Position numbers and translations under genes: made by a program. A DNA stretch of 64,000 nucleotides from Candidatus Iainarchaeum sp. (GTDB taxonomy: Archaea; Iainarchaeota; Iainarchaeia; Iainarchaeales; JAAZKV01): the NCBI GenBank assembly GCA_028691435.1, contig JAQUZG010000001.1, positions 66,921 to 130,920 on the forward strand, read 5' to 3'. Positions 3,584 to 63,089 of the stretch are shown here, piece by piece. How positions within the stretch are numbered: position 1 is the first letter of the stretch; each line of letters begins with the position of its first letter. The notes beneath the pieces were generated by a model. The model did not search any database and had not been told where the DNA came from. It saw only the letters and a program-made list of their open reading frames with translations.

Positions 3584-3670
3584 CGGGCCTGGAGGGAATC
3601 GAACCCCCATCTCGGGATATCTTCAAATTATTACCGAAGTCCCGCCGGTTATCCATTGCCACACGGGCCC
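3584..3670 (-). tRNA. tRNA-Arg(UCG), putative, with ~15-nt intron 3' of position 37
   Basis: The reverse complement reads GGGCCCG..CGGGA-CTTCGG[TAATAATTTGAAGAT]A-TCCCG..GGGGGTTCGATTCCCTC-CAGGCCCG. It has acceptor and T arms with a GTTCGATTC T-loop. A 5-bp anticodon stem flanks the loop C-U-UCG-G plus an inserted 15 nt. The D-arm pairing is non-canonical and I could not resolve it. Confidence 0.6.
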
Positions 3671-4991: not shown

Positions 4992-7043
4992 ATGATTAAT
5001 TCTTTAACTTTGATTAATTGGCGAACTCATAAAGAAACAAAAATTAATTTTGAAAAAGGCACTAATGTGATTATTGGTGTGATGGGGGCGGGTAAATCAT
5101 CTATTGTTAATGCATTATCTTTTGCTCTTTTTGGAACTTTTCCTCAATTAAAATCAAAACAAGTTTCATTAAAAGAAATAATTATGAATAAACCAAATAA
5201 AATGGATTATACAAAAGTAATTCTTGAATTTTCTCATAATGGTTTGAATTATATTGTTGATAGAAAAATAGTGGATGGGGCTACTGAAGCATATTTGCGA
5301 ACTATTGATTCAAAGTTAATTGCTGGTCCAAAACAAAAAGATGTTAATGAAAAAATAGAATCAATTCTTGGGTTAAATTATGAATTATTTAGTCGTGCAA
5401 TTTATGCTGAACAAAATGAAATTGATTTTTTCTTAAAATTAAGTCCTGGTGAAAGAAAAAAGAAATTTGATGAATTACTTGATTTAGAAAAATATGAAAT
5501 TGCTAGAAAAAATTCATTAACTTTAAAAAATCAGTTTGTTAAAGAATTTAAACAAAAAAATGATTTTGTTAATCAACAGAAAAAATTAATAGAAAATTAT
5601 GAAGAAGAAAAACTAAATGTTGATTTATTATCTAATAAAAATGAATTAGTTGATTTAAACTCAAAACTGGATTTACTAAATTCTAATTTTTTAACTATTC
5701 GATCAGAAAAAGAGGTTGCTGATAAAAAACTGATTTTATTTAATCAATTAAAAGATGAAATTATAAAAACAAAAACAAAAATCGAAACATTATCTTCTTC
5801 TATAGCTGGGACAAATCTGCAATCTAAAGAAGATTTAGATCGTAAAAAAGAAGAAACTTTTTCAAAAAAATTAAGTTTAATTAAATTAAAAGAAGCAAAA
5901 GAAAATGAAAAATCTATTCTTGATTTATCATTAAAAAAGATTTGGGAAGAAAAAAAAGTTAATGATTTTAAATTAAAAGAAATTGATTTTGAATTAAAAG
6001 AAATGTTAAATTTAGTTGGCACTTGTCCAAAGTGTAAGCAAAATTTAGATGAAAATCATAAAAAATCAATAATTGAATTAAACGAATCAAATAAATTAAA
6101 AATTATTAATGAAAATAATAGTTTACTTGAAAAAGAAAAAGAAATTACTCAAGAAATTACTAAAATTAAAAACGAAATGGCAATAAATGATAAATTAATA
6201 GAATCATTAAATTCTGACTTGTTTAATTTGCAAATAAACGAAAAAAAATTAATTGAATTAAATGAAAAGAAAAATCAAATTGATTTATTAAAAGAAAAAA
6301 TTCCAAAACTTGAAACAGAATTTGTTAATTTAAAAATTGATCAAACTATTGTTGATGAAATTAAACAAAAATATTTTGAATTAAAAGGACAAATTGATTT
6401 ATTAAAATCAAAGTTGATTTCAAAGCAAGACTTGATAAAAAGTATTGAATCAAATTTAATTAAAATAAAAAAAATTAAAGACTCTATTGCTTCTATTGAA
6501 ATTGATGCTATAAATGATGAGATTGTTTCAAAAAAACTTGGTGTTTTTGAAAATTGTTTAATTTCAACACAAAACGAATTAAGATTATCAATGATTGATA
6601 CAATAAATATTGCAATGTCTGATATTTGGCAAAATGTTTATCCATATAAAGATTATATTGATGCGAAATTAATTATTAATGATAATGGGTATGATTTTGT
6701 TGTTTTAAATAGAAACAATGAATGGGTTAGAGTTGATGGGATTTTAAGTGGTGGGGAACGAAGTGCGGGGGCACTATGTATTAGAATTGCTTTTGCGTTA
6801 GTTTTAACAAAAAATCTTTCAATGTTAATTCTTGATGAACCAACACATAATTTAGATTATAATGCAATTGATAAACTTAGTGAAATGTTTAGAGAAAAGT
6901 TACCAACTCTTGTTGAACAAATTTTTGTAATTACTCATGAAAAAGCATTTGAAACTGCAACAAATGGTAAAACTATTTTATTGACTAGAGATAAAAGTTT
7001 AGATGAATCAACAAAAGTAATTTTAGAAAATGAATTTGATTAA
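4992..7043 (+). CDS. rad50: Rad50/SbcC-family DNA double-strand-break repair ATPase (short, 683 aa) with zinc hook
   Basis: N-terminal Walker A GVMGAGKSSIVNALSFALFG, central coiled coil with CxxC hook GTCPKCKQ, C-terminal ABC signature LSGGERSAGAL, Walker B LILDEPTHNLD and H-loop VITHEK. Confidence 0.75.
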   Translation: MINSLTLINWRTHKETKINFEKGTNVIIGVMGAGKSSIVNALSFALFGTFPQLKSKQVSLKEIIMNKPNKMDYTKVILEFSHNGLNYIVDRKIVDGATEAYLRTIDSKLIAGPKQKDVNEKIESILGLNYELFSRAIYAEQNEIDFFLKLSPGERKKKFDELLDLEKYEIARKNSLTLKNQFVKEFKQKNDFVNQQKKLIENYEEEKLNVDLLSNKNELVDLNSKLDLLNSNFLTIRSEKEVADKKLILFNQLKDEIIKTKTKIETLSSSIAGTNLQSKEDLDRKKEETFSKKLSLIKLKEAKENEKSILDLSLKKIWEEKKVNDFKLKEIDFELKEMLNLVGTCPKCKQNLDENHKKSIIELNESNKLKIINENNSLLEKEKEITQEITKIKNEMAINDKLIESLNSDLFNLQINEKKLIELNEKKNQIDLLKEKIPKLETEFVNLKIDQTIVDEIKQKYFELKGQIDLLKSKLISKQDLIKSIESNLIKIKKIKDSIASIEIDAINDEIVSKKLGVFENCLISTQNELRLSMIDTINIAMSDIWQNVYPYKDYIDAKLIINDNGYDFVVLNRNNEWVRVDGILSGGERSAGALCIRIAFALVLTKNLSMLILDEPTHNLDYNAIDKLSEMFREKLPTLVEQIFVITHEKAFETATNGKTILLTRDKSLDESTKVILENEFD

Positions 7044-7059
7044 TTTTTTTAAAATAAAA

Positions 7060-7269
7060 TTAGTTAGAAGCAACTTTTTCTTTTGCTTCTTTTTTTGAAA
7101 TTCTTGCCATATATCCAGCTAAAACATTTCTACTATTTTTTGATAAACCTAGTTCTAATGGAGCTAAATTTTTTTTATTTGTTTCAAAATTACCACCAAA
7201 TTTTTCTGGCATTTCTGTTGTTAAAACTTCGGCTCTATATTTTAATCCTTTTGATACTGCTTTTCCCAT
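7060..7269 (-). CDS. Hypothetical small protein (69 aa)
   Basis: Protein-like composition, MGKAVSKGLKYRAEVLTTEMPEKFGG.... It lies directly downstream of rpoK on the same strand. Not recognised. Confidence 0.3.
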   Translation of the reverse strand: MGKAVSKGLKYRAEVLTTEMPEKFGGNFETNKKNLAPLELGLSKNSRNVLAGYMARISKKEAKEKVASN

Positions 7270-7280
7270 GTTATTCCCCT

Positions 7281-7487
7281 CTAAAATAATTCTACTCTTT
7301 TTATTGTCCCATCTGGGTATCGTCTAAGTACACTTAATGGTAATGATTTTTCTTCCATTTCTTTTTCAGCAACTCTAAGCATTGATAATTCTTTTGTGCC
7401 TTTAACTAAAGGAGGTGCTCCTAAAGATAATTGTAAAGCTCTTGCAGATAAAATTCTTGTTAATTCAAATCTTGTTAATCTACCCAT
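7281..7487 (-). CDS. rpoK: DNA-directed RNA polymerase subunit K (Rpo6/RpoK, Rpb6 homolog)
   Basis: LTRFELTRILSARALQLSLGAPPLV is the conserved Rpb6/omega motif. 68 aa. Confidence 0.8.
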   Translation of the reverse strand: MGRLTRFELTRILSARALQLSLGAPPLVKGTKELSMLRVAEKEMEEKSLPLSVLRRYPDGTIKRVELF

Positions 7488-7590
7488 TTTCTCACCAAGT
7501 AATAATTAATTTCTTGATAAGAAGCTTTAAAAAAGTAGCTTTTGTTTGATTATTTTTTAATAAATATTAAACTAGCTAATATTAGCCTTT

Positions 7591-9111
7591 TTATTGATTT
7601 CTGGTGCAAATTTTGATTATTTCTGGTGGATTTAAGTTATATTTTGTCAAAAAATCTTTAATTATTTTTAGTGGGTTGCTTCCTTCTAAGTAAATTACCT
7701 TTTTTCCAGAGTAATATGTTCTATATCCTTTTTTTTCTGAAAATTCTTTAAATTCATTAATTGTTTCTTCTTGAATACTAAGTATTGCTTTTGCAAGTTC
7801 ACTTGAAAAAAACTTTGATAGTTGATTTGTTAGATGAAATGGTATTTCATTTAATATTTCTTTATATTTTTGATAATAAATATTAAAATATTCTTTTTCA
7901 AAAGTTTTAGTATAAATTAAAGTATTTGTTTGATTTTCATTTAATTTATTTTTTTTATTAAATAATTCAAATAAAAAATCATTTTTTTTATTTAAACTAA
8001 TTGATAAAAAAGATTCTTTTTTTTGACAAAACCAAAATAGTTCATGATTTTTTTCAATTTTAATTTTTTCATCTAGGTATAATATTTGTGCATCAATTAA
8101 TGGGATTTTTATTTTTTCATTTAATTTAATTGGGCCGATGGGATATTTATTTGAAAAATTTGTAAATTTTCTTAATTCACGATCTTTTTTATTTTCATGT
8201 TCTTTATGGAATTTATCTGCAAATAATTTTGATTTTGTTTCATAATAAAAATTATTTTCATTAAAACTAACTTCTATTTTTGTTGAGGGTAAAATATTTT
8301 TATCAGTCATTTTGTTGGGTTTACAGCAATTACAATTTAATGTATCAAATCCAATATTATAAAAATTTTTTGAAATTAATTTTGAGATAGTGGCTCCAAA
8401 ATCAATTTGTGAAAAAGAATCAAGAATATTAAATGGGATATATTCTTTAGTTAAAAAATTCAACTTTTCATTAGTTTTTTCTAATGATTGGCCATGTTCA
8501 AAAAATATATTTTCTAAATATGATTCAATTATTTCTTGTTTATTTTGACTAATTCTATAAGGTGCTATTTTTAGTATTTTTGATAAAATTGCTTTTTTTA
8601 TTATTTCAATTGTATCTTTTTCATTTATTTTTATTGCTTGATTAAATGATACATTTTGAAAAACTGTTTTTTCAAAATCAATATATTTATCTTTATTATT
8701 TAATTCTAAATTTTCTTCAATCTTATTAATTTCATTATCGTTAATTTTAAATTCGTCAAAATAACTCCAATTTTTTTCAATTAAAAATATTCTTTCAGGT
8801 TCTAAAATTAAATATTGTTTGTTTATTGTTTTTGAAAATAAATTATTTAATTTTTTTAATTCATCAATATGCTTTGCTTTTATTTTTAAATAGTCATTTT
8901 CAGTTTCTAATAAAATGTTGTTTAATTTAAATTCATTTAGTAAATTTTCAAACGTGTTTTTTGTTAATTTTTCATTAGTTTTTATTTTTAAATAAGGGTA
9001 AAAAATAAAGTTTTTTCTTTGAGTATAATTTTTATTTTTAAATTCACAAAGAATCTGATTTTTTTCTTGATTATAGTTTACACTAACTAAATATGTGTGG
9101 GATGTAAGCAT
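7591..9111 (-). CDS. Hypothetical protein, last gene of the nurA-herA operon. N-terminus weakly resembles the family-B DNA polymerase N-terminal domain. Contains a CNCC cysteine cluster.
   Basis: YLVSVNYNQEKNQILCEFKNKNYTQRKNFIFYPYLKIK parallels the PolB N-terminal IxDxDYxxExGKPVIRxFKKENGxFKIExDRTFxPYxYA. No intact exo (DIE/YNGxxFD) or pol (YGDTDS) motifs. There is a 60-nt gap after herA on the same strand. Confidence 0.3.
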   Translation of the reverse strand: MLTSHTYLVSVNYNQEKNQILCEFKNKNYTQRKNFIFYPYLKIKTNEKLTKNTFENLLNEFKLNNILLETENDYLKIKAKHIDELKKLNNLFSKTINKQYLILEPERIFLIEKNWSYFDEFKINDNEINKIEENLELNNKDKYIDFEKTVFQNVSFNQAIKINEKDTIEIIKKAILSKILKIAPYRISQNKQEIIESYLENIFFEHGQSLEKTNEKLNFLTKEYIPFNILDSFSQIDFGATISKLISKNFYNIGFDTLNCNCCKPNKMTDKNILPSTKIEVSFNENNFYYETKSKLFADKFHKEHENKKDRELRKFTNFSNKYPIGPIKLNEKIKIPLIDAQILYLDEKIKIEKNHELFWFCQKKESFLSISLNKKNDFLFELFNKKNKLNENQTNTLIYTKTFEKEYFNIYYQKYKEILNEIPFHLTNQLSKFFSSELAKAILSIQEETINEFKEFSEKKGYRTYYSGKKVIYLEGSNPLKIIKDFLTKYNLNPPEIIKICTRNQ

Positions 9112-9171
9112 AACGTACTTACTTTTTCTTAATTTAAAAACAGTTTTTAAGTAGCTAGCCGGTGATAGTTT

Positions 9172-10698
9172 TTACAAGTAAGCTTCAGTATCTTTATTTA
9201 CAATTTCTTCTTTTTCATTAAATCTTTTTGCTAGGTCTTCAAGAGTAAATTCATGTTTTGAATTTTGTGATTTTTTTAATCGGACTTTAAAAAAAGTTGG
9301 AGCATTAACTGCTTCCCCTACTATTAGTGCATCTCCAACTTTAAGTGATGGAATCATATTTATACTTGTTGAATCAAGTCCTTCACTAGTTTGTTTAATG
9401 TGATCTAAATCATATGGGTTAGTAATTCTAAGTATAATTTGTGTATTACAATTAGCTAAAATTGAAGATGATAATCTTTTTGGTCTTTGTGAAATAACTA
9501 CTAATGATGCTCCAAATTTTCTACCTTCTCTAGCAATTGTGGTTAATGGTTCTCTTGCTATTGCTCTTTCTCCAGCTGTACTTTCTGGAATAAAATTGTG
9601 TGCTTCTTCAACAATCAAAGTAAATGGTGGAATTTTTGAATAATTATCTTGTCTAAGATTAAATAATTTTCTTGAAACTAATGCTACAATAATTTGTTTT
9701 TTTCGTTCATCCATTATATCATTTAAATTAATTATTGTTAATTGTCCTTGTTTTAAAAAATCATAAATGCTTGGCTTTTCAATTTTTTCAAAAAGATTTA
9801 ATTGTTCAACTTCATTAAGCATAGCAATTAATGGATTAGCAGTTTTTTCATCTAAATTAAGCACTTCATTTTTTATTTTATTTAAATCAAATGGGCCAGC
9901 TCCACTTTTCATCTCCTGTTTTAATTTATTTATTATATTTAGTATTTCTCTTTTTTGAATATGTGTAATTTTTGGAAAAATTGATGATAATACACTTGGT
10001 GTGATACTTGAACATTTAAATTTAATATCTTTTCCATTAATTATTTTTGTTTTTGAAGAATAATCAGTATATTTATTATCAGTTACTCCTTCTCCAAAAA
10101 AACTATATTCATTATGCACATCAAAAAGTAAAAGTGCGATTTGGCCGTCTTCTTTTTGTCTTTGAAGTATTTCTTCAATAATTACTGAAGTTAAAAAAGA
10201 TTTTCCAGCTCCACTAGTTGCTAATATTGCTAAGTGTTTTTGAAGTAATTTTGATAATTTTGGTTTTAAATTTACATTATGAAATGGTATTTCTCCAAGC
10301 ATTAATCCTTTTTCATCAATTCCTAAAAATCGTTTTATATTTTCGCCTTCTGCAATAAACACTTTTGTACCTGGGGATGGTGGAAAAGTTGGTCTTTGTA
10401 TTTGTTTATTTTCACTAAATATCCCAAGTGGTCTAGTTTTTGCAATTAAAAATTCCCAATCTGCTACTGGGAAATGGTTTTCCATTTCACTTCCGATTGT
10501 TTTTACTGAATCTGGTCGTTCAAAATATCTATTTGTTTTAATTAAATCTTCTACCATGCAAATCATATTGCCTTGTGAATATGGTATTTCGACAAACATT
10601 CCTTTGTGGATCATGCCGTTGTTGATTACAAAATCTACTCTTGATGGTGATGGCCCATCAAAATTTGAAACTACTGTCCCTAATTGTTTTTCGTCCAT
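9172..10698 (-). CDS. herA: HerA-type hexameric DNA helicase/translocase (FtsK-HerA superfamily, DUF87)
   Basis: Walker A LAILATSGAGKSFLTS, Walker B TLIVEEAHNFIP and the C-terminal VVISQRPKRLSSSILANCNTQIILRITNPYDL motif typical of HerA. Confidence 0.8.
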   Translation of the reverse strand: MDEKQLGTVVSNFDGPSPSRVDFVINNGMIHKGMFVEIPYSQGNMICMVEDLIKTNRYFERPDSVKTIGSEMENHFPVADWEFLIAKTRPLGIFSENKQIQRPTFPPSPGTKVFIAEGENIKRFLGIDEKGLMLGEIPFHNVNLKPKLSKLLQKHLAILATSGAGKSFLTSVIIEEILQRQKEDGQIALLLFDVHNEYSFFGEGVTDNKYTDYSSKTKIINGKDIKFKCSSITPSVLSSIFPKITHIQKREILNIINKLKQEMKSGAGPFDLNKIKNEVLNLDEKTANPLIAMLNEVEQLNLFEKIEKPSIYDFLKQGQLTIINLNDIMDERKKQIIVALVSRKLFNLRQDNYSKIPPFTLIVEEAHNFIPESTAGERAIAREPLTTIAREGRKFGASLVVISQRPKRLSSSILANCNTQIILRITNPYDLDHIKQTSEGLDSTSINMIPSLKVGDALIVGEAVNAPTFFKVRLKKSQNSKHEFTLEDLAKRFNEKEEIVNKDTEAYL

Positions 10699-10702
10699 TT
10701 TT

Positions 10703-11368
10703 TCACTCTTTTAATTTTTCTAATACTTCAAATATTTCATCTAAAGATGAAATTATAAAATCTGGTTTTATTTTTGTTTCATTTTTTTTATTTGTTCTAT
10801 TTATCCAACAACTGTGTATTTTACAATTATTTGCGCCCATTATATCACTTTCAAGAGAATCTCCAACCATTATTGCCTCGTTAGAGTTTACATTAAATTC
10901 ATTTAATATTTTTTCAAAAACTATTTTGTTTGGTTTTACATCCCCAAAATTAAATGAAAATCCTAAATAATCAAAATATTTAGTTAATTTTAATTTTTCA
11001 ATTATTTCTTCTGAATGTAAACTTTCGGCATTACTAAGTAATGCAACAGAATATTTATTTTTATTTAATTTTTCAAGAGTTGATCTTACTTCTGGAAAGT
11101 ATTTTATTTTATCAAATCTATTAAGATAAATTTCATTTAATTCTCTTTCTAAGTTTTCATTATTTATTTCATGGAATTCTTTAAAAAAATCGTTTCTTAA
11201 CTCTTCAAAATTATCATATTTCTTTTTTTGTACTGCATTTTCATATCTTGTAATAAATTCGTCCATGCTAATATTTGATTCTTTTAATAATGTCTTTAAA
11301 TTTGCAACATTTATTGTTGCTGGAATTAGAGTTTTCCAAAGATCAAAAATAATTAATTTAACTACCAT
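10703..11368 (-). CDS. HAD-superfamily hydrolase (subfamily IA-like)
   Basis: Motif I IIFDLWKTL (DxD/W variant), motif III K and motif IV MVGDSLESDIMGA. It lies 4 nt upstream of herA and 29 nt downstream of nurA. Confidence 0.6.
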   Translation of the reverse strand: MVVKLIIFDLWKTLIPATINVANLKTLLKESNISMDEFITRYENAVQKKKYDNFEELRNDFFKEFHEINNENLERELNEIYLNRFDKIKYFPEVRSTLEKLNKNKYSVALLSNAESLHSEEIIEKLKLTKYFDYLGFSFNFGDVKPNKIVFEKILNEFNVNSNEAIMVGDSLESDIMGANNCKIHSCWINRTNKKNETKIKPDFIISSLDEIFEVLEKLKE

Positions 11369-11396
11369 GACTTATCACATATATTTATTGACCAAT

Positions 11397-12452
11397 TTAT
11401 TTAAATGGTCTATTGCCTCTCCTTAAATTTAATTTTGGTCCAATTTTATCAATTAATTTATTGAATACTATTTCAATTTCTTCATTTGTTAATCTTGCTC
11501 GCATATCTGCTTCGATTAAAATTGATGGGTAAGAATAATCTTTATGTAATGATGAAAGTTGATAAACAATTGATGCAATTTCATTTGCTTTTTCTTTTAT
11601 ATCTTTTTTTGCAATAAATTCTATTCGTAAAGCTTTATCATAATTTGATGCCTTTAAATAAAATACATATATATTGTTGCTCCAGTCTTTAGTGTATTCT
11701 TTTAGAATGCTATGTTTTTCAATATTTTTTGAATAATTAAAAAAACAAGTTCTTTCCCCATTGATTAATATGTAATCAAGTATTGATGAGTCTGATGCAA
11801 ATTTTAATTGTTCTTCATTAAGTTTTAACGAATCAATTAACACTTCTTTAAATCTATTTCCTCTTGAATCTTCAACAGTTGAAATTAAAGTGCAATTGTT
11901 TTCTTCACTTGTTTTGTATAATTTTTGAAATAAATCAATTATTGACTCATAATCATCTTTAATTTTTGAATCACTTCTTGGTTTATTTTGATATTGTGGA
12001 ATAATTGAACCGTCAATAAAAAGATATTTTGGTTTTTTTTCAATAATTAATTCTATTGATGTTGTGATTTCTTTTTTTAATCTTTCAATACCTTTACTTT
12101 GTTCTTCTTCATCATTCTCAAGTCCATTTTTAAGTAAAATTGGTTCTGGAAAAAGAGTTGGTTTGAAGTATTCTGCTTTTGTTAACTTTGAATCATTATA
12201 ACTAAAAATGACTGCTCCAATTTTTATTAAAAGTATATCTAAAAATGAAAGTCTTTTAGAAACAAATCCACTATCTACTCCGGCTATATCGCAATCAAAT
12301 TTAACTATTTTTATTTTTGACACAATTGTTTCAATTTCATTAATTGATAATTTGCTTTTTGATGGCACTAAATATTTTCCAAGTGTTTCGTTTTTTGTGT
12401 AATGTTGATTAATTTCTTCAAATGCTTGGTTCATGAAATTAGTATATTGCAT
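11397..12452 (-). CDS. nurA: NurA 5'-3' nuclease
   Basis: Conserved NurA-domain aspartates IAGVDSGF and YLFIDGSIIP. About 350 aa. Classical archaeal partner of HerA. Confidence 0.7.
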   Translation of the reverse strand: MQYTNFMNQAFEEINQHYTKNETLGKYLVPSKSKLSINEIETIVSKIKIVKFDCDIAGVDSGFVSKRLSFLDILLIKIGAVIFSYNDSKLTKAEYFKPTLFPEPILLKNGLENDEEEQSKGIERLKKEITTSIELIIEKKPKYLFIDGSIIPQYQNKPRSDSKIKDDYESIIDLFQKLYKTSEENNCTLISTVEDSRGNRFKEVLIDSLKLNEEQLKFASDSSILDYILINGERTCFFNYSKNIEKHSILKEYTKDWSNNIYVFYLKASNYDKALRIEFIAKKDIKEKANEIASIVYQLSSLHKDYSYPSILIEADMRARLTNEEIEIVFNKLIDKIGPKLNLRRGNRPFK

Positions 12453-15516: not shown

Positions 15517-18111
15517 ATGGATTATTTTAAACAAATTTTTACAATTTTATTGGGGTTAATTTTAATTAGTGGGGTATTTGCGGCAAGTCCACAAATGTTA
15601 TTTTCTACTGAATTATCGGGTGCGCATTATACTAATTATCCTAGTCTTGATTTTTATGCATCTGATACTGATGGTGATTTAAATACACTTTTAGTTGATG
15701 TGAATTATGTGATTGATAATACTACTATTTTTCATGATCAAAATTCTAGTGTTGCGGTAGCTACTAATGATATTAATCAAAAAGTTAATTTAATTGGTTC
15801 GCCCGATGGGAATTACTTAATTACTTTAACAGCTATTGATAATGCATTAAATACAACAATCCAATCTTATTGGGTGTTTATTGATACTGCTGCTCCAGTA
15901 GTTACATCCGTTGTTACAGTTGATGAAGATTACCTTTATGGAATAAATAGGGAATTAACTGTAAAAGTTAATGCTACTGATTTGTCAGGAATTGGTAGAG
16001 TTTTTATTGATTTAAATAACATAATAAAAACAAATTGTGCAGTATCTGGAAGTTTTTGTGAAATGACTCAAAAAACAGACGGAAATTGGACAATAAATTT
16101 AGGTGATGGGTGGGATTATGATTTTAATCAATTTGATGTAAATGTAAGAGTTGGTGATAAAACTTTAGCAAATTTTGCCGATGCAAATTATTTGTTAAAT
16201 GATGGTCAAGGTATTTTTCTTTATAGTTTAGAATATGTTTCATCTGACTTAAATGGGATTTCATCAACAAATTTTAAAGACATTAATAACTTCCAAAGAG
16301 TTTTGAATTTAACATTTGAAAAAACAGGTTATGGAAAAATTGTTTTCAATCAAGATATTAATTTGCTTGATGGTATGACAGTTAATGAATTATTAAATTT
16401 AGCAAATGCAATAACAATTGATGTTAATAGTGAAAATACTGATCAAAAATCAATTGACATAAATAGTCTAGCTTTTGCAAATTTAAATAAATCAGCAACA
16501 CTATATTTATACAATTTAAATTATTCATCTATTCCAAAAATAATTTACATTAATTCAAGTGGGACTACTGAAGTTTGTTCAACAGATAGATGTTCATCTT
16601 TAGATTATAATTTGGTTTCAAAAACAGCAACATTTAATGTAACTGGATTTAGTAAATATCAAACATCTTATAATTTACCAGTATTTACTAATTCACTTTC
16701 AACAAATATTGATTCTGCTGAATATGAATTTTTTTCAGATTCAAACACACTTCAAATACAAGCTAGTCAAACATTTAAATTATTTATTCCTGTTACAAAA
16801 GGAAGTTATGATTTAAATTTATCATCTTGTAAAATTGATATAAACGGAATTATTTATTCTGCTGATTGGAACAGTGATGGTAATAATTGTCAATATCAAT
16901 TTGTTTCTGGTGTTCCAAATGGATCAAGTTGGACAGTAAAATTTAATATTAAAGATATTAATGGACATGATGTTAATTCTGCAACATACTCAATTGTTGG
17001 AGATTCATCTTCACCAATAATTACAATTTTATCTAATTCTTCAGTTTCAACTTCAACTGGAGTAATTACATTAAGATCTAATGAAAAATCAACTTGTAAA
17101 TATAATTCTTCAAATGTATCTTATGATTCAATGAATTCAAGTGTTTATTCATTAGCTGCAAACACATCATTAAACGTTACAATCTCTGGATTATCTTCTG
17201 GGACATCATATGGATATTATTTTAAATGTAAAGATTATGCTGGAAATGAATCAAATGCTGATAATAATTATATTTCATTTACAACATCTTCATCTTCTTC
17301 ACCTGATTCAGCAGCTAGTTCGGCTTCTTCATCATCTAATTCATCTTCAACAAAAGATTATATTGATGAAACTGCAAATACTCCTAATTCAACACCATTA
17401 GTAATTTCTAAATCTACTGATTCAGATGAAATTTCTAATGATGAAGTTAGAGGAATTTTAACTGATGCAAAAGATAATAATGGTAAAGCTCTATTTTCTG
17501 AAGAAGAAATTTTAAAAATGGTTGAAGAATCAAATAAATTTTCTTTTGTTAGAGAAGTTAAAGTAGAAGAAATTGATAATAATGGAATAATTACTTATCA
17601 AACGACTTTCACAATAAAAATAAAAAATACAACTGATAAAAATTTATCTGATGTATTAATTGTTGAAGTAATTCCAAAAGATTTAATAAATTTTATTGAT
17701 TTAAATATGATTAAATCAATTTATCAATTTAGAATATTAGCTAGTGATCCAGTTGTTGAATTTACTGTTCCATTGGTTGATGCAAATACTGAATTAGTAT
17801 TAGAATATACTATTGATTTAAACAATAAACCTGATGTAAACAATATTGTTTTTTCATCACCCTTAGTAAAAAATACAAACATATTTGTTGCAAAATCAAC
17901 TGATTCAATGAATTGGATTTTTGACATTCTTCAAATTATAATAATTTTGATAGTTCTTGGATTAATTATTGGGGCTGGGATAGTTATTTATTCAAACTCA
18001 AATAAATCTAAATCTAAAACTGATTCAAAAAAAGAGGTTAAAAAATCAACTGATTCAAAAGCGTCAAATTCGAACTCTGAACATAAAGGAAAATTCAAAT
18101 TAAAAAAGTAA
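15517..18111 (+). CDS. Large secreted surface glycoprotein, S-layer-like
   Basis: N-terminal signal peptide MDYFKQIFTILLGLILISGVFAAS. About 800 aa rich in N-x-S/T sequons. Ser-rich linker SSSSSPDSAASSASSSSNSSS. C-terminal TM helix IIIILIVLGLIIGAGIVIY plus a Lys-rich tail. Confidence 0.6.
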   Translation: MDYFKQIFTILLGLILISGVFAASPQMLFSTELSGAHYTNYPSLDFYASDTDGDLNTLLVDVNYVIDNTTIFHDQNSSVAVATNDINQKVNLIGSPDGNYLITLTAIDNALNTTIQSYWVFIDTAAPVVTSVVTVDEDYLYGINRELTVKVNATDLSGIGRVFIDLNNIIKTNCAVSGSFCEMTQKTDGNWTINLGDGWDYDFNQFDVNVRVGDKTLANFADANYLLNDGQGIFLYSLEYVSSDLNGISSTNFKDINNFQRVLNLTFEKTGYGKIVFNQDINLLDGMTVNELLNLANAITIDVNSENTDQKSIDINSLAFANLNKSATLYLYNLNYSSIPKIIYINSSGTTEVCSTDRCSSLDYNLVSKTATFNVTGFSKYQTSYNLPVFTNSLSTNIDSAEYEFFSDSNTLQIQASQTFKLFIPVTKGSYDLNLSSCKIDINGIIYSADWNSDGNNCQYQFVSGVPNGSSWTVKFNIKDINGHDVNSATYSIVGDSSSPIITILSNSSVSTSTGVITLRSNEKSTCKYNSSNVSYDSMNSSVYSLAANTSLNVTISGLSSGTSYGYYFKCKDYAGNESNADNNYISFTTSSSSSPDSAASSASSSSNSSSTKDYIDETANTPNSTPLVISKSTDSDEISNDEVRGILTDAKDNNGKALFSEEEILKMVEESNKFSFVREVKVEEIDNNGIITYQTTFTIKIKNTTDKNLSDVLIVEVIPKDLINFIDLNMIKSIYQFRILASDPVVEFTVPLVDANTELVLEYTIDLNNKPDVNNIVFSSPLVKNTNIFVAKSTDSMNWIFDILQIIIILIVLGLIIGAGIVIYSNSNKSKSKTDSKKEVKKSTDSKASNSNSEHKGKFKLKK

Positions 18112-20893: not shown

Positions 20894-22489
20894 ATGGCTA
20901 AGACTTATTTAAGTACAGTAAAATATGAAATTAAAGCAAGTTATGAAATTACAGGAATTGTAGATAAACCTGATATTATTGGTGCTATTTTTGGTCAAAG
21001 TGAAGGATTACTTGGTCAAGATATGGACTTAAAGGAATTACAACAAAATGGAAAACTTGGAAGAATAGAAATTTCTGTTAAAAAAGGAAAAGGAAAAACT
21101 AATGGGGAAATAATTATTCCATCTTCATTAGATAAAGTTAAAACAAGTATTCTTGCAGCAACAATAGAAACAGTAAATAAAGTTGGTCCATGTGATGCAG
21201 TAATAAAAATTCTTGGTATAGAAGATACTAGACAAGAAAAACGAAGTGTTATTACAGACCGTGCAAAAGAACTTTTGAAAAGTATGCAAGCAAACGATGA
21301 ATCTACAGAAAGTATTGAAATTGCTGAAGAAATTAAATCAGATATTAGAACTGAAAAAATTGTAAAATATAAAGGACTTGCTGCTGGGCCAGAAGTTGAA
21401 ATGAGTGAAGAAATTATACTTGTTGAAGGAAGAGCAGATGTATTAAAACTATTAAGTTATGGTATAAAAAATGCAATTGAAATGAATGGTAGTAATATTT
21501 CACCAGCTTTAATTGAATTATGTAAAGTAAAAAATGTAACAGTTTTAGTTGATGGTGATAGAGGCGGAGAATTAAATATAAAAAAATTAGCTTCATTAAC
21601 AAAAATTGATTTTGTTGCAAAAGCACCAGATGGAAAAGAAGTTGAAGAACTAACACAAAAAGAAATTTTACTTTCTTTAAAAAGAAAAGTTCCATTTGCT
21701 GAATCAATAAGAAATAATTCAAATCAAGTTGAACAAACAAATAATTTTAATCAAAATCAAGGAAATGGTTATAGAAATAATAATTTTGTTCAAAGACCAT
21801 TTAATCCACACAATAATTTTGGTAATAGGCCAAATTTCAATAATAATGGTGGATTTAATAATAATTTTAATAATCGAAATAATTTCCAAGATAGAAACAA
21901 TTTTGGTAATAGGCCTAATTTCAATAATAATAGAAATGGTCAGAATTTTCAAGGTAATGGTTTTAGGAATAATAATTTTGTTCAAAGACCTAATTTCAAT
22001 AATAATCGGGATGGTCAGAATTTTCAAGGTAATGGTTTTAGGAATAATAATTTTGGTAATCGTCCTAATTTCAATTCACGACCTGGATTTAATCAAAGAC
22101 CTAGTTTTGGGCAACCAAATTTTAGATCAGATGCTCCTGTAGAATTTGATCAAAATCCAAGATTTGAAAATCAAAATATTGTTAGAGAAGAAAGAAACGA
22201 AGTAGTAACACCAAAAGAAATTCTTAATTTAAAAAAAGATTTTGATAAATTAAAAGGAAAAGGAAAAGCACGACTACTTGACGAAAAATATAAAAAAATC
22301 AAAGATGTTGGCGTAAAAGAAATGGTTGACACTATTGCAAAATCAAAGAAAAAAGTACATGTTATAATGTATGATGGAGTAATTTCAAAAAAAGTAATTG
22401 ATACTGCTGAAGAAAAAAACATCCCATATATTGTGGCTGTAAAAAAAGCAAAAGTATCTTCAACTAAAGTAAAATTAATTACAATGTAA
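20894..22489 (+). CDS. dnaG: Archaeal DnaG (Toprim primase-like, exosome-associated) with a large N/F/R/G-rich low-complexity insertion
   Basis: N-terminus KPDIIGAIFGQSEGLLGQDMDLKELQQNGKLGRIEI is diagnostic of archaeal DnaG. A Toprim region follows. An insertion of about 140 aa made of NNFGNRPNFNNN / GQNFQGNGFRNNNF repeats precedes the conserved C-terminus. Confidence 0.8.
   Translation: MAKTYLSTVKYEIKASYEITGIVDKPDIIGAIFGQSEGLLGQDMDLKELQQNGKLGRIEISVKKGKGKTNGEIIIPSSLDKVKTSILAATIETVNKVGPCDAVIKILGIEDTRQEKRSVITDRAKELLKSMQANDESTESIEIAEEIKSDIRTEKIVKYKGLAAGPEVEMSEEIILVEGRADVLKLLSYGIKNAIEMNGSNISPALIELCKVKNVTVLVDGDRGGELNIKKLASLTKIDFVAKAPDGKEVEELTQKEILLSLKRKVPFAESIRNNSNQVEQTNNFNQNQGNGYRNNNFVQRPFNPHNNFGNRPNFNNNGGFNNNFNNRNNFQDRNNFGNRPNFNNNRNGQNFQGNGFRNNNFVQRPNFNNNRDGQNFQGNGFRNNNFGNRPNFNSRPGFNQRPSFGQPNFRSDAPVEFDQNPRFENQNIVREERNEVVTPKEILNLKKDFDKLKGKGKARLLDEKYKKIKDVGVKEMVDTIAKSKKKVHVIMYDGVISKKVIDTAEEKNIPYIVAVKKAKVSSTKVKLITM
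21936..22054 (+). repeat. Near-perfect 44-bp direct repeat (period 75 bp) inside dnaG low-complexity region
   Basis: atggtcagaattttcaaggtaatggttttaggaataataatttt occurs at about 21936 and 22011. More degenerate copies lie upstream from about 21760. Confidence 0.7.
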
Positions 22490-23364: not shown

Positions 23365-24753
23365 CTAAATTTTGCCAATTCGTTTGATGCCATGTGTTCG
23401 CATATATTCTTGCCAAACAATAAACACTATGCCTTTTGAAGCATCAAGATCTTTTCCACCAATCCTTAATTTTTTTGCGAATTGCTCAATTGTTTCAATT
23501 AATCCATTAAAATCAGTAATCACTGCATTATGGGCTGCTTTTGGATTTTTATAAAACCCAGCTGTATCCAAATCTAATAATGTTGAGGATGCAGTAATAT
23601 TATGTCCTGAAAAAACGCTCATTCCTTGTGAAGATAAAGATCCGCCTAATCTAACATCAAATGCGTATAATGATAATGCTAACCTACATGAAAAAACAAA
23701 TAATAATTCTTTTTTTACCTCATTTAATGAAACAAATTTTTTTGCTATTCTTGAATAAACTTTGCCTGTTTTAAGTGAATCCTTTGTTAGATTTATCCCA
23801 TAGTAGTCCATTGTTTGTCTCCAATCTTCATCAAATCTAAATTTATTAAGTTCCATAATCCTATGATTCAATGGGACGGAATATGCAAAATAAATTGGAT
23901 TTTTAATTTTTCCTTTTAAACTTGTGGCAGCTAAACCTTTCATTAATTTAAACCATCTAGCTCCCTTAAGATTTTTAATTGCTTTTTTTTCTTCTAAAGA
24001 AAGATATTTAGAATATTTCTTTATAAATGCATCTGGGTTTTTAATTGCAAGGGGAACTTGTTGTAAATCAAAAACTGCAATTGGATTCATAACACTTACT
24101 CGTCTTATAGCAGTAATTGAAAAATATTTTCTTACAAAAGGATCTGTTTTTAATTTAACTAATTCGTTTCTCAATAAGTTAGCATTTTCAATTGCGTTTG
24201 TAATTGTTTCTTCTCTTGCTAATCCAATATATCTCTGTTCTACAACATTTGGCCATCGTACGTATTCAAAAATAGATTTTACATTTGAATCAGTACTCAC
24301 TTTGTTTTTAAATTTTGACCTTCGTTTAATTTCATTTTCAGCTAATTTTGAAAAAAAATCATCATCCCTAAATAAACCATTCGCTTCAAAACTTTTTTTT
24401 AATTTTATTTCAATCTGTTCTTTAGATAAATTTGATTCAGATTCTGACTTAATCCTATTTTGTGATGCCCCCGTCCCCTTCATTACCAAAGTCATTTGTC
24501 TATTTGATTTTCCTTTTGGGGAAGTAGCAAAACTTCGCCCATGCGCCCCATCAAATTTAGTTTCAGGAGTCTTAATTGGAACAAGGTATAAATTTCTAGT
24601 ATCATGCCCATTTTCACGTAAACTTTCACCTACTTTTAAACGATGAACTGGGACTAGTAGGCTTCTTTGGTTTTTCAATGCTTTATGATCAAGCGGTAAA
24701 TCTAGTCTAAGTCTTGCTAAAACTGACATTGAATTAATTCTTTTTCTATGCAT
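23365..24753 (-). CDS. Hypothetical protein, compositionally atypical (GC-richer). Possible Pol-beta-like NTase motif near C-terminus.
   Basis: 462-aa ORF whose DNA is visibly more G/C-rich than its flanks. Basic, disordered N-terminus. The C-terminal GGSLSSQGMSVFSGHNITASSTLLDLDTAG ... AVITDFNG resembles a GS...DhDh...D nucleotidyltransferase pattern; a kinase-like H-N/DLD loop is an alternative. No family assigned. Confidence 0.35.
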   Translation of the reverse strand: MHRKRINSMSVLARLRLDLPLDHKALKNQRSLLVPVHRLKVGESLRENGHDTRNLYLVPIKTPETKFDGAHGRSFATSPKGKSNRQMTLVMKGTGASQNRIKSESESNLSKEQIEIKLKKSFEANGLFRDDDFFSKLAENEIKRRSKFKNKVSTDSNVKSIFEYVRWPNVVEQRYIGLAREETITNAIENANLLRNELVKLKTDPFVRKYFSITAIRRVSVMNPIAVFDLQQVPLAIKNPDAFIKKYSKYLSLEEKKAIKNLKGARWFKLMKGLAATSLKGKIKNPIYFAYSVPLNHRIMELNKFRFDEDWRQTMDYYGINLTKDSLKTGKVYSRIAKKFVSLNEVKKELLFVFSCRLALSLYAFDVRLGGSLSSQGMSVFSGHNITASSTLLDLDTAGFYKNPKAAHNAVITDFNGLIETIEQFAKKLRIGGKDLDASKGIVFIVWQEYMRTHGIKRIGKI

Positions 24754-43608: not shown

Positions 43609-44244
43609 ATGACAACAAAAAAATCAATTTGGTATTTTTCAAAACAAGAAAAAATTGATTTGTTAATTAGTTGGCTAACTTTATCACTAGCTTTTGCAGT
43701 TGTAATCTCGCCAATTTTTTTAGGAATTCCTGAATTTATAATTTCTTTTCCAATTGCATTAATTGCTGTTGGAACTGGTTTTGTTTTACATGAAATGGCA
43801 CATAGACAAATGGCAAGACATTTTGGATTTCATTCAGAATATAGGGCATGGTATCCAGGTTTAGTTTTTGCTTTTTTCTTAGCATTAATAACAAAAGGGG
43901 CATTTATTTTTGCAGCACCTGGTGCAACATATTTTTTTGGAGAAACAGTAACTACTCAGCAAGAAGGTAAAATTTCAATTGCTGGGCCAATAACAAATTT
44001 AGTTGTTGGATTTATTTTAATTTTTTTATTTTTATTTTCGCATTCATCATTTTGGCAAATTGTATTGATCAAATCAGCATTAATTAATTTCTGGTTTGCA
44101 GCATTTAATTTAATTCCATTTGGGCCACTTGATGGTGCAAAAGTGATGAAATGGAATTCAAGACTTTGGATTTTAGTTTTTGCAATTTCAGCATTACTTG
44201 CTTTATTTCCAATTCAAATTTTTACAGTTTTAAATTTAATTTAA
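43609..44244 (+). CDS. Membrane-embedded zinc metalloprotease, site-2 protease (M50) family-like
   Basis: HExxH within a TM helix (GFVLHEMAHRQMARHFG) and a downstream FNLIPFGPLDGAKV matching the S2P LDG motif. 211 aa. Confidence 0.55.
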   Translation: MTTKKSIWYFSKQEKIDLLISWLTLSLAFAVVISPIFLGIPEFIISFPIALIAVGTGFVLHEMAHRQMARHFGFHSEYRAWYPGLVFAFFLALITKGAFIFAAPGATYFFGETVTTQQEGKISIAGPITNLVVGFILIFLFLFSHSSFWQIVLIKSALINFWFAAFNLIPFGPLDGAKVMKWNSRLWILVFAISALLALFPIQIFTVLNLI

Positions 44245-44597
44245 TAACATACGTTTAATTTTATTTTTTTAAATTGAAAAAATAAATCATTTATTTCTTC
44301 TTCTCTAGTAACACAATTTTTACCATTTAATTCATTTAAATTATCAAAAATTATTTTTCCATTAACTTCTATTTTAAAATAATTAAAAAATTTTTTTGCA
44401 TCAGTTATTAGTTCATCTGTGTTAGTGTTATTATAACTCCAAATTTTAATTAAATCATTTTCTTGTTGAATTATAATAAGATCAGTATAATTTTTATTAA
44501 TACTAAAATTAACATTTACAATTAATATTAAAACAAGTATTATTGAAATAATTGTTTCAAATGAAAAAACTTGACCTCTTAAATTTAATTTTGTCAT
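44241..44597 (-). CDS. Class III signal peptide pilin-like protein
   Basis: LNLRG|QVFSFETIISIILVLILIV. Confidence 0.55.
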   Translation of the reverse strand: MTKLNLRGQVFSFETIISIILVLILIVNVNFSINKNYTDLIIIQQENDLIKIWSYNNTNTDELITDAKKFFNYFKIEVNGKIIFDNLNELNGKNCVTREEEINDLFFQFKKIKLNVCY

Positions 44598-45046
44598 TTT
44601 TTACACCCTTTTAAAGATAAAACTTTTTTATTATCCTTGATTAACACATATCTCTTTATTGTAACACAATCTTTGCTTTCTAACAAATCATGGAAAATTT
44701 GTTTCTCATCTAATTTAATTTCTTTAACAAAAAAATTTTTGATATTTAGTTGTTTTATTTTACTAAATAAACTTTCATCTAATTGATTACTAATTATTCG
44801 CTTTTTTTCATAATCTATTTGACAACTTCCAAGAAGTGAATTTTCAATATTTCTATTTTTTACAAAACTATCTGCTAAAAAAATAGTTTTTTCAATTAGT
44901 TCATTGTCTTTAAATTGATTTAAATTAAAATTATAATTTTGAAAATATGAACTCATTAAAATAAATATTGTAATTAGAATTAAACAAAAACTAACAATTA
45001 AATCAATTGAATAAAACATTGCTTTTTCATTTAATATAATGTTCAC
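44594..45046 (-). CDS. Pilin-like protein with N-terminal hydrophobic helix
   Basis: NEKA|MFYSIDLIVSFCLILITIFIL. Overlaps neighbouring genes by 4 nt. Confidence 0.45.
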   Translation of the reverse strand: MNIILNEKAMFYSIDLIVSFCLILITIFILMSSYFQNYNFNLNQFKDNELIEKTIFLADSFVKNRNIENSLLGSCQIDYEKKRIISNQLDESLFSKIKQLNIKNFFVKEIKLDEKQIFHDLLESKDCVTIKRYVLIKDNKKVLSLKGCKK

Positions 45047-45353
45047 TTTTTTCCACCTCTAATTGATTTGATTTAATTATTTTTGGAATTATTTGACTAA
45101 ATTTTTCTTTGTTAAAAACAATATTTTCTTCTCCAAAACAACTAATTTTATCAATGTATTCATTTGCACTATTAGAATAAATTGAATCAATCAAATTCAT
45201 ACAAAATACACTTTCATTTTTTGAAATCAATTCATTATTCTTAAATTCAAAACCAGTATTAATTTTTATTAAACTAGACGAGATTATTGAAATTCCAATT
45301 ATTAATCCAAGTAAAACAAACATAAATTCAATAGTATTCATTTTATCACACAA
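45027..45353 (-). CDS. Pilin-like protein
   Basis: MNTIEFMFVLLGLIIGISII with acidic residue at +5. Confidence 0.45.
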   Translation of the reverse strand: MCDKMNTIEFMFVLLGLIIGISIISSSLIKINTGFEFKNNELISKNESVFCMNLIDSIYSNSANEYIDKISCFGEENIVFNKEKFSQIIPKIIKSNQLEVEKSEHYIK

Positions 45354-45912: not shown

Positions 45913-46037
45913 CTTTTCGTCAATCTATTAAGTTGTGACTAATTTGTTATATTTATTACTGGCTATTTAATTAGTTATTAAATGACTAATAAAAACCTTT
46001 AAAATACCTATATTATGTATTTTCTTATAGTGGTTAA

Positions 46038-50337: not shown

Positions 50338-50485
50338 AATTGTTAATTTTTTAATTTATGATTATTGTTTACTTTTTTAAAAATTCTATTTAATTCTTAT
50401 TTTCTAGTTTTTAATTTAAACCATACTTTTTTATATTATTTTTAGTATATTATATGTAGAGATTAGTTATCTGTTGGTGGTAAAA

Positions 50486-62164: not shown

Positions 62165-62437
62165 TTATTTTATTTTAGCAAATTCTTTTTTTAATTCACT
62201 AACTTCACTTTGTAATTCTTTTATTGCTTCAATCAAAACTTTTTTTGGGTTTGATGAATTTGTTGTTAAAATAAATCTTGCTTTTTTATCTAAAGGATGT
62301 TCTAATCTGTAAGCAACGAATTCAACATTTTCGTTTTCAGCTAATTTTTCTCTTAAAACATTTGGAATAGTGTGTCTTTCACCATTTAAGTAAAATTCTA
62401 ATTTTTTTCCTTCATTAGTTAAAATTTCTATTTCCAT
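62165..62437 (-). CDS. rpoL: DNA-directed RNA polymerase subunit L (Rpo11/RpoL)
   Basis: LEFYLNGERHTIPNVLREKL...VEFVAYRLEHPL matches the Rpb11/RpoL fold. 90 aa. Confidence 0.75.
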   Translation of the reverse strand: MEIEILTNEGKKLEFYLNGERHTIPNVLREKLAENENVEFVAYRLEHPLDKKARFILTTNSSNPKKVLIEAIKELQSEVSELKKEFAKIK

Positions 62438-63089
62438 TTCTATTCACTCCTCTATCATTGCTATTAAAGTTTCTATTATTAATATTATTAAATCTTCCTC
62501 TTTGATTTGAATTATTAAAAGATTGTCGATTTGGTCTATTTTCAAAAGTCTCTTTCTTTAAATACCATTTTCTATCTTCTGATTGATTACAATCAAAGCA
62601 AGTTAATCTATTATTTGAAAAAACCATTTCTTTTCTGCATTTTGTACAATATGCTATTATTACACCAAGACCTTCTTCTTTAGTAGATAATTCAGTTGTA
62701 TTTTCATTAACAGAAATTACTTTTGCTTTTATAATATCTCCTAGTTTCATACAACTATCTGGTCTTTCAACAAAATTATTGCTGATATTTCTAACTGCGA
62801 TTTGACCTTTTGTCATATTAATTATGTGATTATTTTCTGCTTTTATTAATTCAAGTACTGCTGTAGAATCCTTAATTAATGAAACTCTACCATAAACAAT
62901 ATCTCCTTCTTTTACTAATCTTCTTGATTTTGCATCAATTTCCACTTCTTTTTCAGTTTCGTTAAAAATTATTTTACCAAATGCTGTTGATTTTATTTCA
63001 CCATTATCTCCAACAGTATTTTTACCCGGCAAATATTCTTCCTCAGTAGCTAAAACTTGTCCAGGAACAGCTATTTTTTCATTACTCAT
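62415..63089 (-). CDS. csl4: Exosome complex RNA-binding cap protein Csl4 with N/R/F-rich C-terminal tail
   Basis: N-terminal domain VPGQVLA, S1 domain GDIVYGRVSLIKDSTAVLEL and Zn-ribbon CTKCRKEM...CFDCN. The csl4-rpoL adjacency is conserved in archaea. Tail: NRPNRQSFNNSNQRGRFNNINNRNFNSNDRGVNRNGNRNFN. Confidence 0.75.
   Translation of the reverse strand: MSNEKIAVPGQVLATEEEYLPGKNTVGDNGEIKSTAFGKIIFNETEKEVEIDAKSRRLVKEGDIVYGRVSLIKDSTAVLELIKAENNHIINMTKGQIAVRNISNNFVERPDSCMKLGDIIKAKVISVNENTTELSTKEEGLGVIIAYCTKCRKEMVFSNNRLTCFDCNQSEDRKWYLKKETFENRPNRQSFNNSNQRGRFNNINNRNFNSNDRGVNRNGNRNFN

Follow-up and report, generated by a model that had tools for sequence, protein, structure and literature searches.

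An archaeal DnaG encoded in a 64,000-nucleotide stretch of a Candidatus Iainarchaeum sp. genome (assembly GCA_028691435.1, contig JAQUZG010000001.1, positions 66,921 to 130,920 of the forward strand; hereafter the window) carries a long low-complexity segment rich in Asn, Phe and Arg, and a matching tail is found on Csl4, which is encoded in the same window. The segment is the form taken in this lineage by a disordered linker which joins the RNA-binding N-terminal and Toprim half of DnaG to its exosome-docking C-terminal domain. The reading favoured here, with a probability of roughly 55%, takes the linker of DnaG and the tail of Csl4 to be two multivalent disordered modules on the exosome cap that capture RNA and possibly form condensates. 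Paired RNA capture is proposed because the docking of DnaG on Csl4 has been published for Sulfolobus and because the two proteins bear matching regions.

The gene is well defined (Table 1). Its open reading frame (ORF) of 531 amino acids (aa) plus stop codes for the Toprim protein of the exosome cap, scores 430 bits against the NCBIfam equivalog model of archaeal DnaG (NF003108; PRK04031; cut-off 300), and is 100% identical to a protein from a metagenome-assembled genome (P0001) that bears the NCBI name 'DNA primase DnaG [Candidatus Iainarchaeum sp.]'. The Pfam families Toprim, Toprim_2 and Toprim_4 all match aa 173-252 (nt 21410-21649), and the Glu and DxD residues of the Toprim motif, E178 and D220-G-D222, are invariant across 65 homologues. 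The conserved domains flanking Toprim on its N-terminal side and its C-terminal side are both present and predicted to be folded. Model positions 1-414 of 419 in NF003108 are stretched across residues 10-527, and therefore about 110-150 residues of this DnaG are extra to the model. A search of solved structures with DnaG returned only the Toprim core of a bacterial primase (4e2k, E=5e-4) and no archaeal DnaG structure.

The linker comprises 151 residues (aa 284-434) between the Toprim and C-terminal domains, and AlphaFold2, with 65 homologues as input, gave it a predicted local distance difference test score (pLDDT) below 50 and no secondary structure, while the two halves on either side score above 90. 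Residues 276-425 consist of N 35%, F 15%, R 11%, G 10%, Q 9% and P 7%, with K, I and L all at 0%, as against K 16%, I 11% and L 9% in the remainder of the protein. A proteome that is rich in N, F and R as a whole was considered and rejected, as the composition over the ORFs of the window is N 7%, F 5%, R 3%, K 11%. The Asn residues are encoded by AAT in 51 of 52 cases. There are 24 aromatic residues, 18 Arg and no Lys within the linker, giving a net charge of about +10. The aromatics are spaced 4-9 residues apart and are never adjacent; the coefficient of variation (CV) of their spacing is 0.21, compared with 0.86±0.16 in 10,000 shuffles (p<1e-4). Uniformly spaced aromatics in a polar sequence predicted to be disordered are the mark of an aromatic sticker and polar spacer domain, in the sense of the prion-like low-complexity domain reportedly described by Martin and colleagues in 2020. 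The motif RPx[F/Y] occurs six times, where 0.2 occurrences are expected. The linker has 0 RGG and 0 RG, and thus no cluster of the kind that reportedly defines an RGG/RG motif domain (two or three RGG or RG at short spacing, according to Thandapani and colleagues in 2013). A protein search with aa 261-447 produced 85 word-sharing candidates, none of them significant, the query protein itself included; since low-complexity scoring suppresses matches, that search is uninformative about similar regions in other proteins.

The linker is shared by the whole clade. In the 120 best DnaG homologues (Iainarchaeota, DPANN; 39-61% identical, 416-582 aa), a low-complexity linker stands at the equivalent place in every one, with a length of 67-206 aa and a median of 115. 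Its sequences are barely alignable and its composition is constant. The median linker has 16.7% Arg, 1.9% Lys, 12.9% aromatic and 3.8% aliphatic residues, and the corresponding values in the folded parts are 3.6%, 14.3%, 3.3% and 28.5%. Net charge is positive in 119 of the 120 linkers (median +9). The CV of aromatic spacing lies under the 5th percentile of the linker's own shuffles in 97 of 116 homologues, at an average spacing of about six. The pooled linkers have 8 adjacent aromatics where 207 are expected, RR at half the expected level and a 7-fold enrichment of RPx[F/Y], which is present at least three times in 27 of the 120 (median 1).

The spacer residues follow base composition, while the Arg does not. 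Across 59 species-representative genomes, local G+C content (GC) correlates negatively with linker Asn (rho -0.46), positively with Gly (0.43) and not with Arg (0.03); the present window, with about 25% GC, has the lowest GC and the highest Asn among them. As Asn goes up and Gly goes down with falling GC, the present genome of 25% GC has the Asn-rich form of a linker that is RGG/FG-like in GC-richer relatives, and Asn is read here as an AT-rich stand-in for the Gly spacers of the relatives. The orthologous regions of GC-richer relatives do contain RGG, RG and FG boxes. By its composition, Arg is evidently kept against the mutational pull toward Lys: at 25% GC the proteins of this genome have 11% Lys and 3% Arg, and mutational bias alone does not account for a linker in which these values are 0% and 11%.

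The initial annotation, made from the DNA alone, had described a low-complexity N/F/R/G-rich insertion between Toprim and the conserved C-terminus, with an RGG/FG- or prion-like composition. The segment does lie there, and the word insertion has to be given up, given the equivalent linker in all of the nearest homologues; the same observation answers the concern that the region might be absent from relatives. Taken literally, the RGG label is wrong for this protein and right for the orthologous regions of the GC-richer relatives. Prion-like describes only the Asn spacers of this AT-rich genome. With 43 Q/N in its best 80-residue window (starting at aa 274), the segment is above the 30 Q/N per 80 residues that Michelitsch and Weissman are said to have set in 2000 as the threshold for prion domains. 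The character is not conserved, however: Asn ranges from 0 to 34% in the 120 orthologous linkers and tracks GC, Arg and aromatics stay constant, and the present linker is not poor in charges or prolines, with 11% Arg and 7% Pro.

A second region of this type was found on another exosome protein. When the window was scanned in six frames for segments with much Arg and aromatics but little Lys and aliphatics, exactly two emerged, the DnaG linker and positions 62418-62567 on the minus strand. The latter falls at the end of the gene for Csl4, the RNA-binding protein of the exosome cap (224 aa), after which rpoL (62165-62437) follows. The protein scores 157 bits with NCBIfam NF034126 (cut-off 90), its residues 6-174 aligning with model positions 2-173 of 180, contains Pfam ECR1_N, EXOSC1 and S1, and has a zinc ribbon with four invariant Cys, all of which identify it as Csl4. 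The 47 residues that are situated past the end of the model (…FENRPNRQSFNNSNQRGRFNNINNRNFNSNDRGVNRNGNRNFN) are predicted to be disordered (pLDDT <50) and hold 2 RG and 0 RGG. The link of the segment to the exosome, which the initial annotation had drawn from the role of archaeal DnaG as an RNA-binding exosome subunit, is strengthened because the Csl4 of the window bears this matching tail.

Tails of 39-122 aa are present on Csl4 in all eight protein-database relatives with at least 38% identity to that of the window, and at each of the 23 metagenome loci where the gene end is complete and the RKW[F/Y] motif is present; three more distant Csl4 proteins have no tail and end directly after the zinc ribbon. 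The 28 distinct tails have 20% Arg, 12% aromatics, 3% Lys, 1% aliphatics and up to 36% Gly, a charge of +4 to +15, and an aromatic spacing that peaks at 6-8. In the relatives they contain up to 5 RGG and 13 RG, enough to class them by motif content as real RGG/FG tails. About 620 kb were scanned, made up of the window and 108 loci, and every genuine stretch fell in either DnaG (38) or Csl4 (26). Nine other matches in the loci of relatives were discarded as out-of-frame Arg-rich readings of GC-rich DNA, not proteins.

The tail is also maintained between close strains. A close relative of this organism occurs in another public assembly (L120; ENA ERZ27247350, contig k141_589204), with 93.2% DNA identity and no gaps over 827 bp of csl4-rpoL. 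Between the two, 5 of 141 nt are changed in the csl4 tail and 44 of 531 in the body; the tails are of equal length with no indel, and both changes in Arg codons are synonymous. Besides the window, three further contigs carry both dnaG and csl4, and the paired regions have pentamers in common, for example FRPNN/RPNNF, FRPRF and RPRFG. P0008 and P0126 were not accepted as a fifth pair, since they lie on separate records (985,290 and 983,011 bp).

At the DNA level, part of the linker is a tandem repeat. Tandem Repeats Finder reported 21899-22075 with a period of 75 (25 codons), 2.4 copies, 88% matches and a score of 291. The two full units are 89% identical, and an older copy upstream (21812-21886) is 64% identical; they encode the repeated peptide units NNFGNRPNFNNNR and (N/D)GQNFQGNGFRNNNF. 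These results bear out the near-identical 44-bp repeats with a 75-bp period, and the older degenerate copies, of the initial annotation, except that the exact match extends to 45 bp. This 45-mer occurs exactly twice in the window; among 100 shuffles it never turned up, even when 3 mismatches were tolerated. The period is divisible by three and the reading frame is intact through the entire array, so that the near-identical in-frame units have the form of a coding locus of the variable number tandem repeat (contingency) type. The eight differences between the young units are confined to the first 40 nt, the last 35 being identical (Fisher p=0.006), and older sub-blocks match distant units closely (21757-21798 against 21949-21990, 39/42; 21812-21847 against 21896-21931, 34/36). 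As the differences are clustered and sub-blocks match distant units better than their neighbours, the array is, by this sequence comparison, a mosaic from several rounds of duplication or conversion and not the product of a single event. There was no Rfam match at the dnaG locus, and the repeat is therefore not any known RNA element. An exact 44-mer scan of Joint Genome Institute (JGI) metagenome contigs for strain variants gave 0 matches, an exact look-up of the DnaG protein in the contig index gave no record, and the nearest other DnaG in the protein collections is 61% identical, with no close relative there.

Relatives provide similar cases. Tandem DNA repeats of their own are present in the linker-coding part of 14 of 69 relatives, with periods of 15-120 bp that are multiples of three with one exception. 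When dnaG length was compared among relatives, whole-unit differences were seen within sister-lineage pairs. In three pairs with about 100% identity in the folded parts, the linkers differ by one block of 18 aa (P0056/P0061), of 36 aa flanked by a 16-aa direct repeat (P0046/P0074) and of 67 aa (P0006/P0075); a pair that is 98% identical (P0035/P0038) differs by 38 aa. Judging from the sequences, such pairs would represent either true polymorphism in unit number or collapse in short-read assembly. A recent expansion or contraction of the repeat in the present lineage, as had been suggested from its perfect copies, is plausible because the 45-bp copy is exact and sister lineages have whole-unit indels. 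The linker as a whole diverges faster than the core; for example, one pair with 96% identity in the core has 74% in the linker, and another has 90% and 57%.

A wider search with the N-terminal and Toprim half against 1.84 billion cluster representatives gave 302 matches at E<=1e-30. In the best 150 of the 302, the junction between Toprim and the C-terminal domain has 9-370 residues and may be of the Arg/aromatic type, Arg/Ser or Arg/Asp, Lys-rich, strongly acidic (halophile-like), Asn-rich or next to nothing (representatives that illustrate this variety are P0141, P0165, P0167, P0189, P0209, P0245 and P0250). The median linker has 125 aa, 17% Arg and 14% aromatics in the closest unlabelled archaea (n=6), 100 aa, 17% and 9% in Iainarchaeum (n=18), 98 aa, 7% and 3% in Micrarchaeota (n=17), and 56 aa, 10% and 4% in Woesearchaeota (n=9). 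On these comparisons, the junction is a general hypervariable hot spot of archaeal DnaG, and the Arg/aromatic grammar a feature of the clade. Separately, six contigs with an archaeal DnaG (L013, L016, L018, L051, L052 and L069) are in bins labelled Chloroflexota, Falkowbacteria, Acidobacteriota, 'bacterium' and Acidoferrum, and are probably mis-binned DPANN contigs in public assemblies.

The mechanism which would unite these observations is as follows. The linker of the clade would be held under selection as a 'sticker and spacer' region, in which the stickers are Arg, with its positive charge, and aromatics at about every six positions, and the spacers are polar residues that follow base composition, Gly in the GC-richer relatives and Asn here. 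New linker material arises by in-frame tandem duplication and unit-level recombination, such that the sequence decays and the grammar stays. With Csl4, the docking subunit of DnaG, bearing a tail of the same grammar, the two regions could form a multivalent flexible fringe at the RNA-entry side of the exosome. This fringe may bind RNA non-specifically through Arg-phosphate contacts and Arg or Phe contacts with bases, and may thereby raise the local RNA concentration for degradation or tailing; it could also self-associate, together with RNA, to give condensate-like assemblies. In Sulfolobus, a cap that contains Csl4 is required for DnaG to bind the exosome, the C-terminal domain of DnaG is needed for this, and its N-terminal and Toprim domains bind RNA (PMC3672285, PMC4227792). 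This phylum falls within Cluster 1 DPANN, where Csl4 is retained (PMC7414124), and aromatic-Arg contacts have been described as drivers of phase separation (PMC10888811). The suggestion in the initial annotation of an RNA-binding or phase-separating module thus stands as to the type of grammar (Arg, evenly spaced aromatics, polar spacers, a charge of +10), and as to function it is carried here at the strength of inference.

Several points weigh against this reading. Some genomes labelled Iainarchaeum (L023, L027, L032 and L075) have DnaG linkers of just 17-46 aa and model DnaG proteins function with a short one, so a long linker is dispensable. A junction which tolerates 9-370 aa of varied classes across archaea looks, on sequence, like a permissive spacer. 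Micrarchaeota retain Csl4, yet their DnaG linkers are Q/E/K-rich. The statistics on spacing and motifs probably overstate the case, because the homologues are non-independent and the tandem duplication of short units itself yields regular spacing. The scans covered one 64-kb window and the genes next to dnaG and csl4, so that any specificity of the grammar to the exosome is a statement on this set; as the loci were chosen for dnaG and csl4, the 620 kb are a small sample of other genes. When k-mers were used to pair linkers with tails (k=3 and k=4), the best match was the own partner in three of four pairs, a result from few pairs that is confounded by composition and thus no more than suggestive. 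Finally, the analysis shows the anatomy, the predicted disorder, the conserved composition and patterning, the swap of spacers with GC, the evolution through repeats and the matching tail of Csl4; RNA binding, condensation and cooperation with Csl4 are what we infer for the two regions.

The explanation that competes most directly is that the junction needs flexibility only, and that slippage and AT-biased mutation inflate it while selection acts merely against hydrophobic or structured sequence. The range of linker lengths and compositional classes in archaea, the very short linkers of some relatives, the tracking of GC by Asn, the tandem repeats of differing periods in relatives and the rapid divergence of the linker relative to the folded parts are all what a neutral spacer would produce. 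Such an AT-driven spacer should, however, be rich in Lys, Asn and Ile, and the actual linker has no Lys, Ile or Leu and 11% Arg. Its aromatics are enriched 4-fold and regularly spaced in most homologues, its Arg is independent of GC, and its charge is positive in all homologues but one. The same grammar has also appeared independently on the Csl4 tail, which is at least as conserved as the Csl4 body between close strains. Neutrality is therefore judged unlikely, with some weight left to it. Rather less weight is given to an array of docking motifs, in which RPx[F/Y] would bind a folded partner (Csl4, Rrp4, an Sm-like protein, aRNase J or a helicase), or in which linker and tail would bind each other and so strengthen or regulate the attachment of DnaG. 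The excess of the motif, both pooled and in this protein, the pentamers that DnaG and Csl4 of the same contig have in common, and the docking of DnaG via Csl4 (PMC3672285) agree with it. The motif is not conserved in the clade, though, most linkers having fewer than three copies; common k-mers can follow from common composition, and the pairing test is weak. As both regions are net positive, direct mutual binding in the absence of RNA is disfavoured.

The remaining alternatives are further from the evidence. Disordered Arg/aromatic regions bind single-stranded DNA as well as RNA, and the catalytic residues of Toprim are intact, from which it might be supposed that the linker serves the proposed primase-type activity of DnaG, by binding single-stranded DNA or by tethering a helicase in the manner of the linker of the single-stranded DNA-binding protein SSB. 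Against such a role in replication, which seems very improbable, the matching tail is on an exosome protein, and the RFC, Cdc6 and topoisomerase I of the window lack the grammar. That the Asn-rich sequence makes a true prion or an amyloid switch is given hardly any credence; the Q/N count is above the threshold, but an Arg at about every eighth residue and 7% Pro interrupt the Asn runs, and the Q/N-richness is not conserved among orthologues. Equally slight is the chance that the repeat was collapsed or expanded by the assembler. The source is a metagenome-assembled genome, the collections hold no independent second assembly of this dnaG, and the sister-lineage pairs that differ by one unit of 18-67 aa could themselves be collapses. 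The exact repeat, on the other hand, spans just 45 bp, less than usual reads or large k-mers do; eight positions separate the two units, which are therefore distinguishable; and the frame is kept through the array, with a comparable linker in every relative.

The paired RNA-capturing modules proposed here have partial counterparts in known systems. The canonical DnaG of Sulfolobus solfataricus (PMC4227792, PMC3672285) is like the present one in its three folded modules and in having its Csl4 partner encoded in the genome. It is unlike it in length, with 419 positions in the family model against 531 residues here, the excess being the linker. Neither of these two DnaG papers mentions a linker ('linker' and 'variable' have 0 occurrences in PMC4227792), and literature searches on archaeal exosome proteins gave nothing relevant on disordered, RGG-type or prion-like regions. 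The C-terminal 'lasso' of Rrp6 is likewise a flexible basic region on an exosome-associated protein; it binds RNA and stimulates the exosome (PMC5314766), which is the role that the DnaG and Csl4 regions may have. There is no sequence homology with the lasso, and in the present case two cap proteins bear matching regions. To our knowledge, the lasso is not a repeat-built Arg/aromatic array.

The RGG/RG (glycine-arginine-rich, GAR)/aromatic regions of eukaryotes, such as those of the FUS family, hnRNPA1 and nucleolin/fibrillarin, are also disordered, Arg-rich, Lys-poor and net positive, with regularly spaced aromatics and polar spacers, and are borne by RNA-handling proteins; the orthologous regions of the GC-richer relatives even have literal RGG, RG and FG boxes. 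The differences are that the present regions are archaeal and on DnaG and Csl4 of the exosome cap, that the DnaG region is internal and not terminal, that Asn replaces Gly here, with 0 RGG or RG in the DnaG linker, and that Phe is used rather than Tyr. In bacteria, the disordered C-terminal half of RNase E has Arg-rich RNA-binding segments and forms the condensates known as BR-bodies in Caulobacter. It is comparable in that an RNA-decay machine has a fast-evolving Arg-rich low-complexity region, but it belongs to another family and domain of life, and has alternating charge blocks and protein-docking microdomains in place of evenly spaced aromatics. The Q/N prion-like domains and the Asn-rich regions of Plasmodium resemble the segment in its N+Q of 44%, encoded by AAT in a 25%-GC genome, and differ in that the conserved feature here is Arg with aromatics, and Arg and Pro break the Asn runs.

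Table 1. Features of the dnaG and csl4 genes in the window (positions are those of the 64,000-nucleotide stretch).
Feature	Positions	Strand	Basis
dnaG coding sequence	20894..22489	+	NF003108, Pfam Toprim families, P0001 identity, invariant Toprim residues
Folded N-terminal half, aa 1-283 (N-terminal domain and Toprim)	20894..21742	+	pLDDT mostly 80-97; invariant or near-invariant columns to aa 263
Predicted disordered low-complexity linker, aa 284-434	21743..22195	+	pLDDT <50, composition, aromatic spacing
Older degenerate copies of sub-units	21746..21895	+	Repeat search, sub-block matches
Young in-frame tandem repeat, 75-bp units 21896-21970 and 21971-22045 with a partial third	21896..22075	+	Tandem Repeats Finder, unit identity
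Exact 45-bp copy 1, encoding (N)GQNFQGNGFRNNNF	21936..21980	+	Sequence comparison, shuffles
Exact 45-bp copy 2	22011..22055	+	Sequence comparison, shuffles
Folded C-terminal domain, aa 435-531	22196..22486	+	pLDDT 92-97; conserved columns from about aa 440
csl4	62415..63089	-	NF034126, Pfam ECR1_N/EXOSC1/S1
Csl4 C-terminal low-complexity tail, aa 178-224 (47 aa), N/R/F-rich	62418..62558	-	Window scan, beyond family model, pLDDT <50

Among the other genes of the window are ordinary archaeal housekeeping genes, namely those of the CCA-adding enzyme, Rad50/HerA/NurA, Hjc, threonyl- and phenylalanyl-tRNA synthetases (ThrRS, PheRS), RFC, Cdc6, topoisomerase I and Cdc48. A DNA-end-resection cluster occupies 4992-12452, with Rad50-like (4992-7043, +), HerA (9172-10698, -), a HAD hydrolase and NurA (11397-12452, -). 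Within it, a 506-aa ORF (7591-9111, -) has no Pfam match, and Mre11 was not recognised there. ORFs of 864 aa (15517-18111, +), 462 aa (23365-24753, -; just downstream of dnaG) and 409 aa (50474-51703, +) match no Pfam family at E<=1e-4. Rfam found a tRNA of 87 nt at 3584-3670 on the minus strand (40.8 bits), but ARAGORN reported none in the whole window; the match may be an archaeal tRNA with an intron or of some other atypical kind. GC reaches its window minimum of 18.6% at 44001-46000, across several short ORFs.

Arg/aromatic low-complexity regions are well studied for RNA binding and condensates in eukaryotes, and lately in bacteria, whereas hardly any have been described from archaea, and no such DnaG linker or Csl4 tail was met in the literature searched. 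Here the same grammar is found on two contacting exosome proteins and is conserved in the clade despite a fast turnover of sequence. As a practical warning, length differences among archaeal dnaG annotations are mostly due to this hypervariable linker, in which repeats may collapse in short-read assemblies. It is conceivable, if rather doubtful, that Iainarchaeota evolved an independent analogue of the condensates of RNA decay (BR-bodies, RNA granules), in which the DnaG and Csl4 regions together with RNA would form membraneless exosome assemblies. If so, the clade would be a natural experiment on 'molecular grammar', in which the spacer, Gly or Asn, is free to follow GC. The series from Gly to Asn spacers with constant stickers is useful for sticker-spacer models, and the paired regions give a concrete hypothesis for how genome-reduced DPANN archaea may capture RNA substrates.

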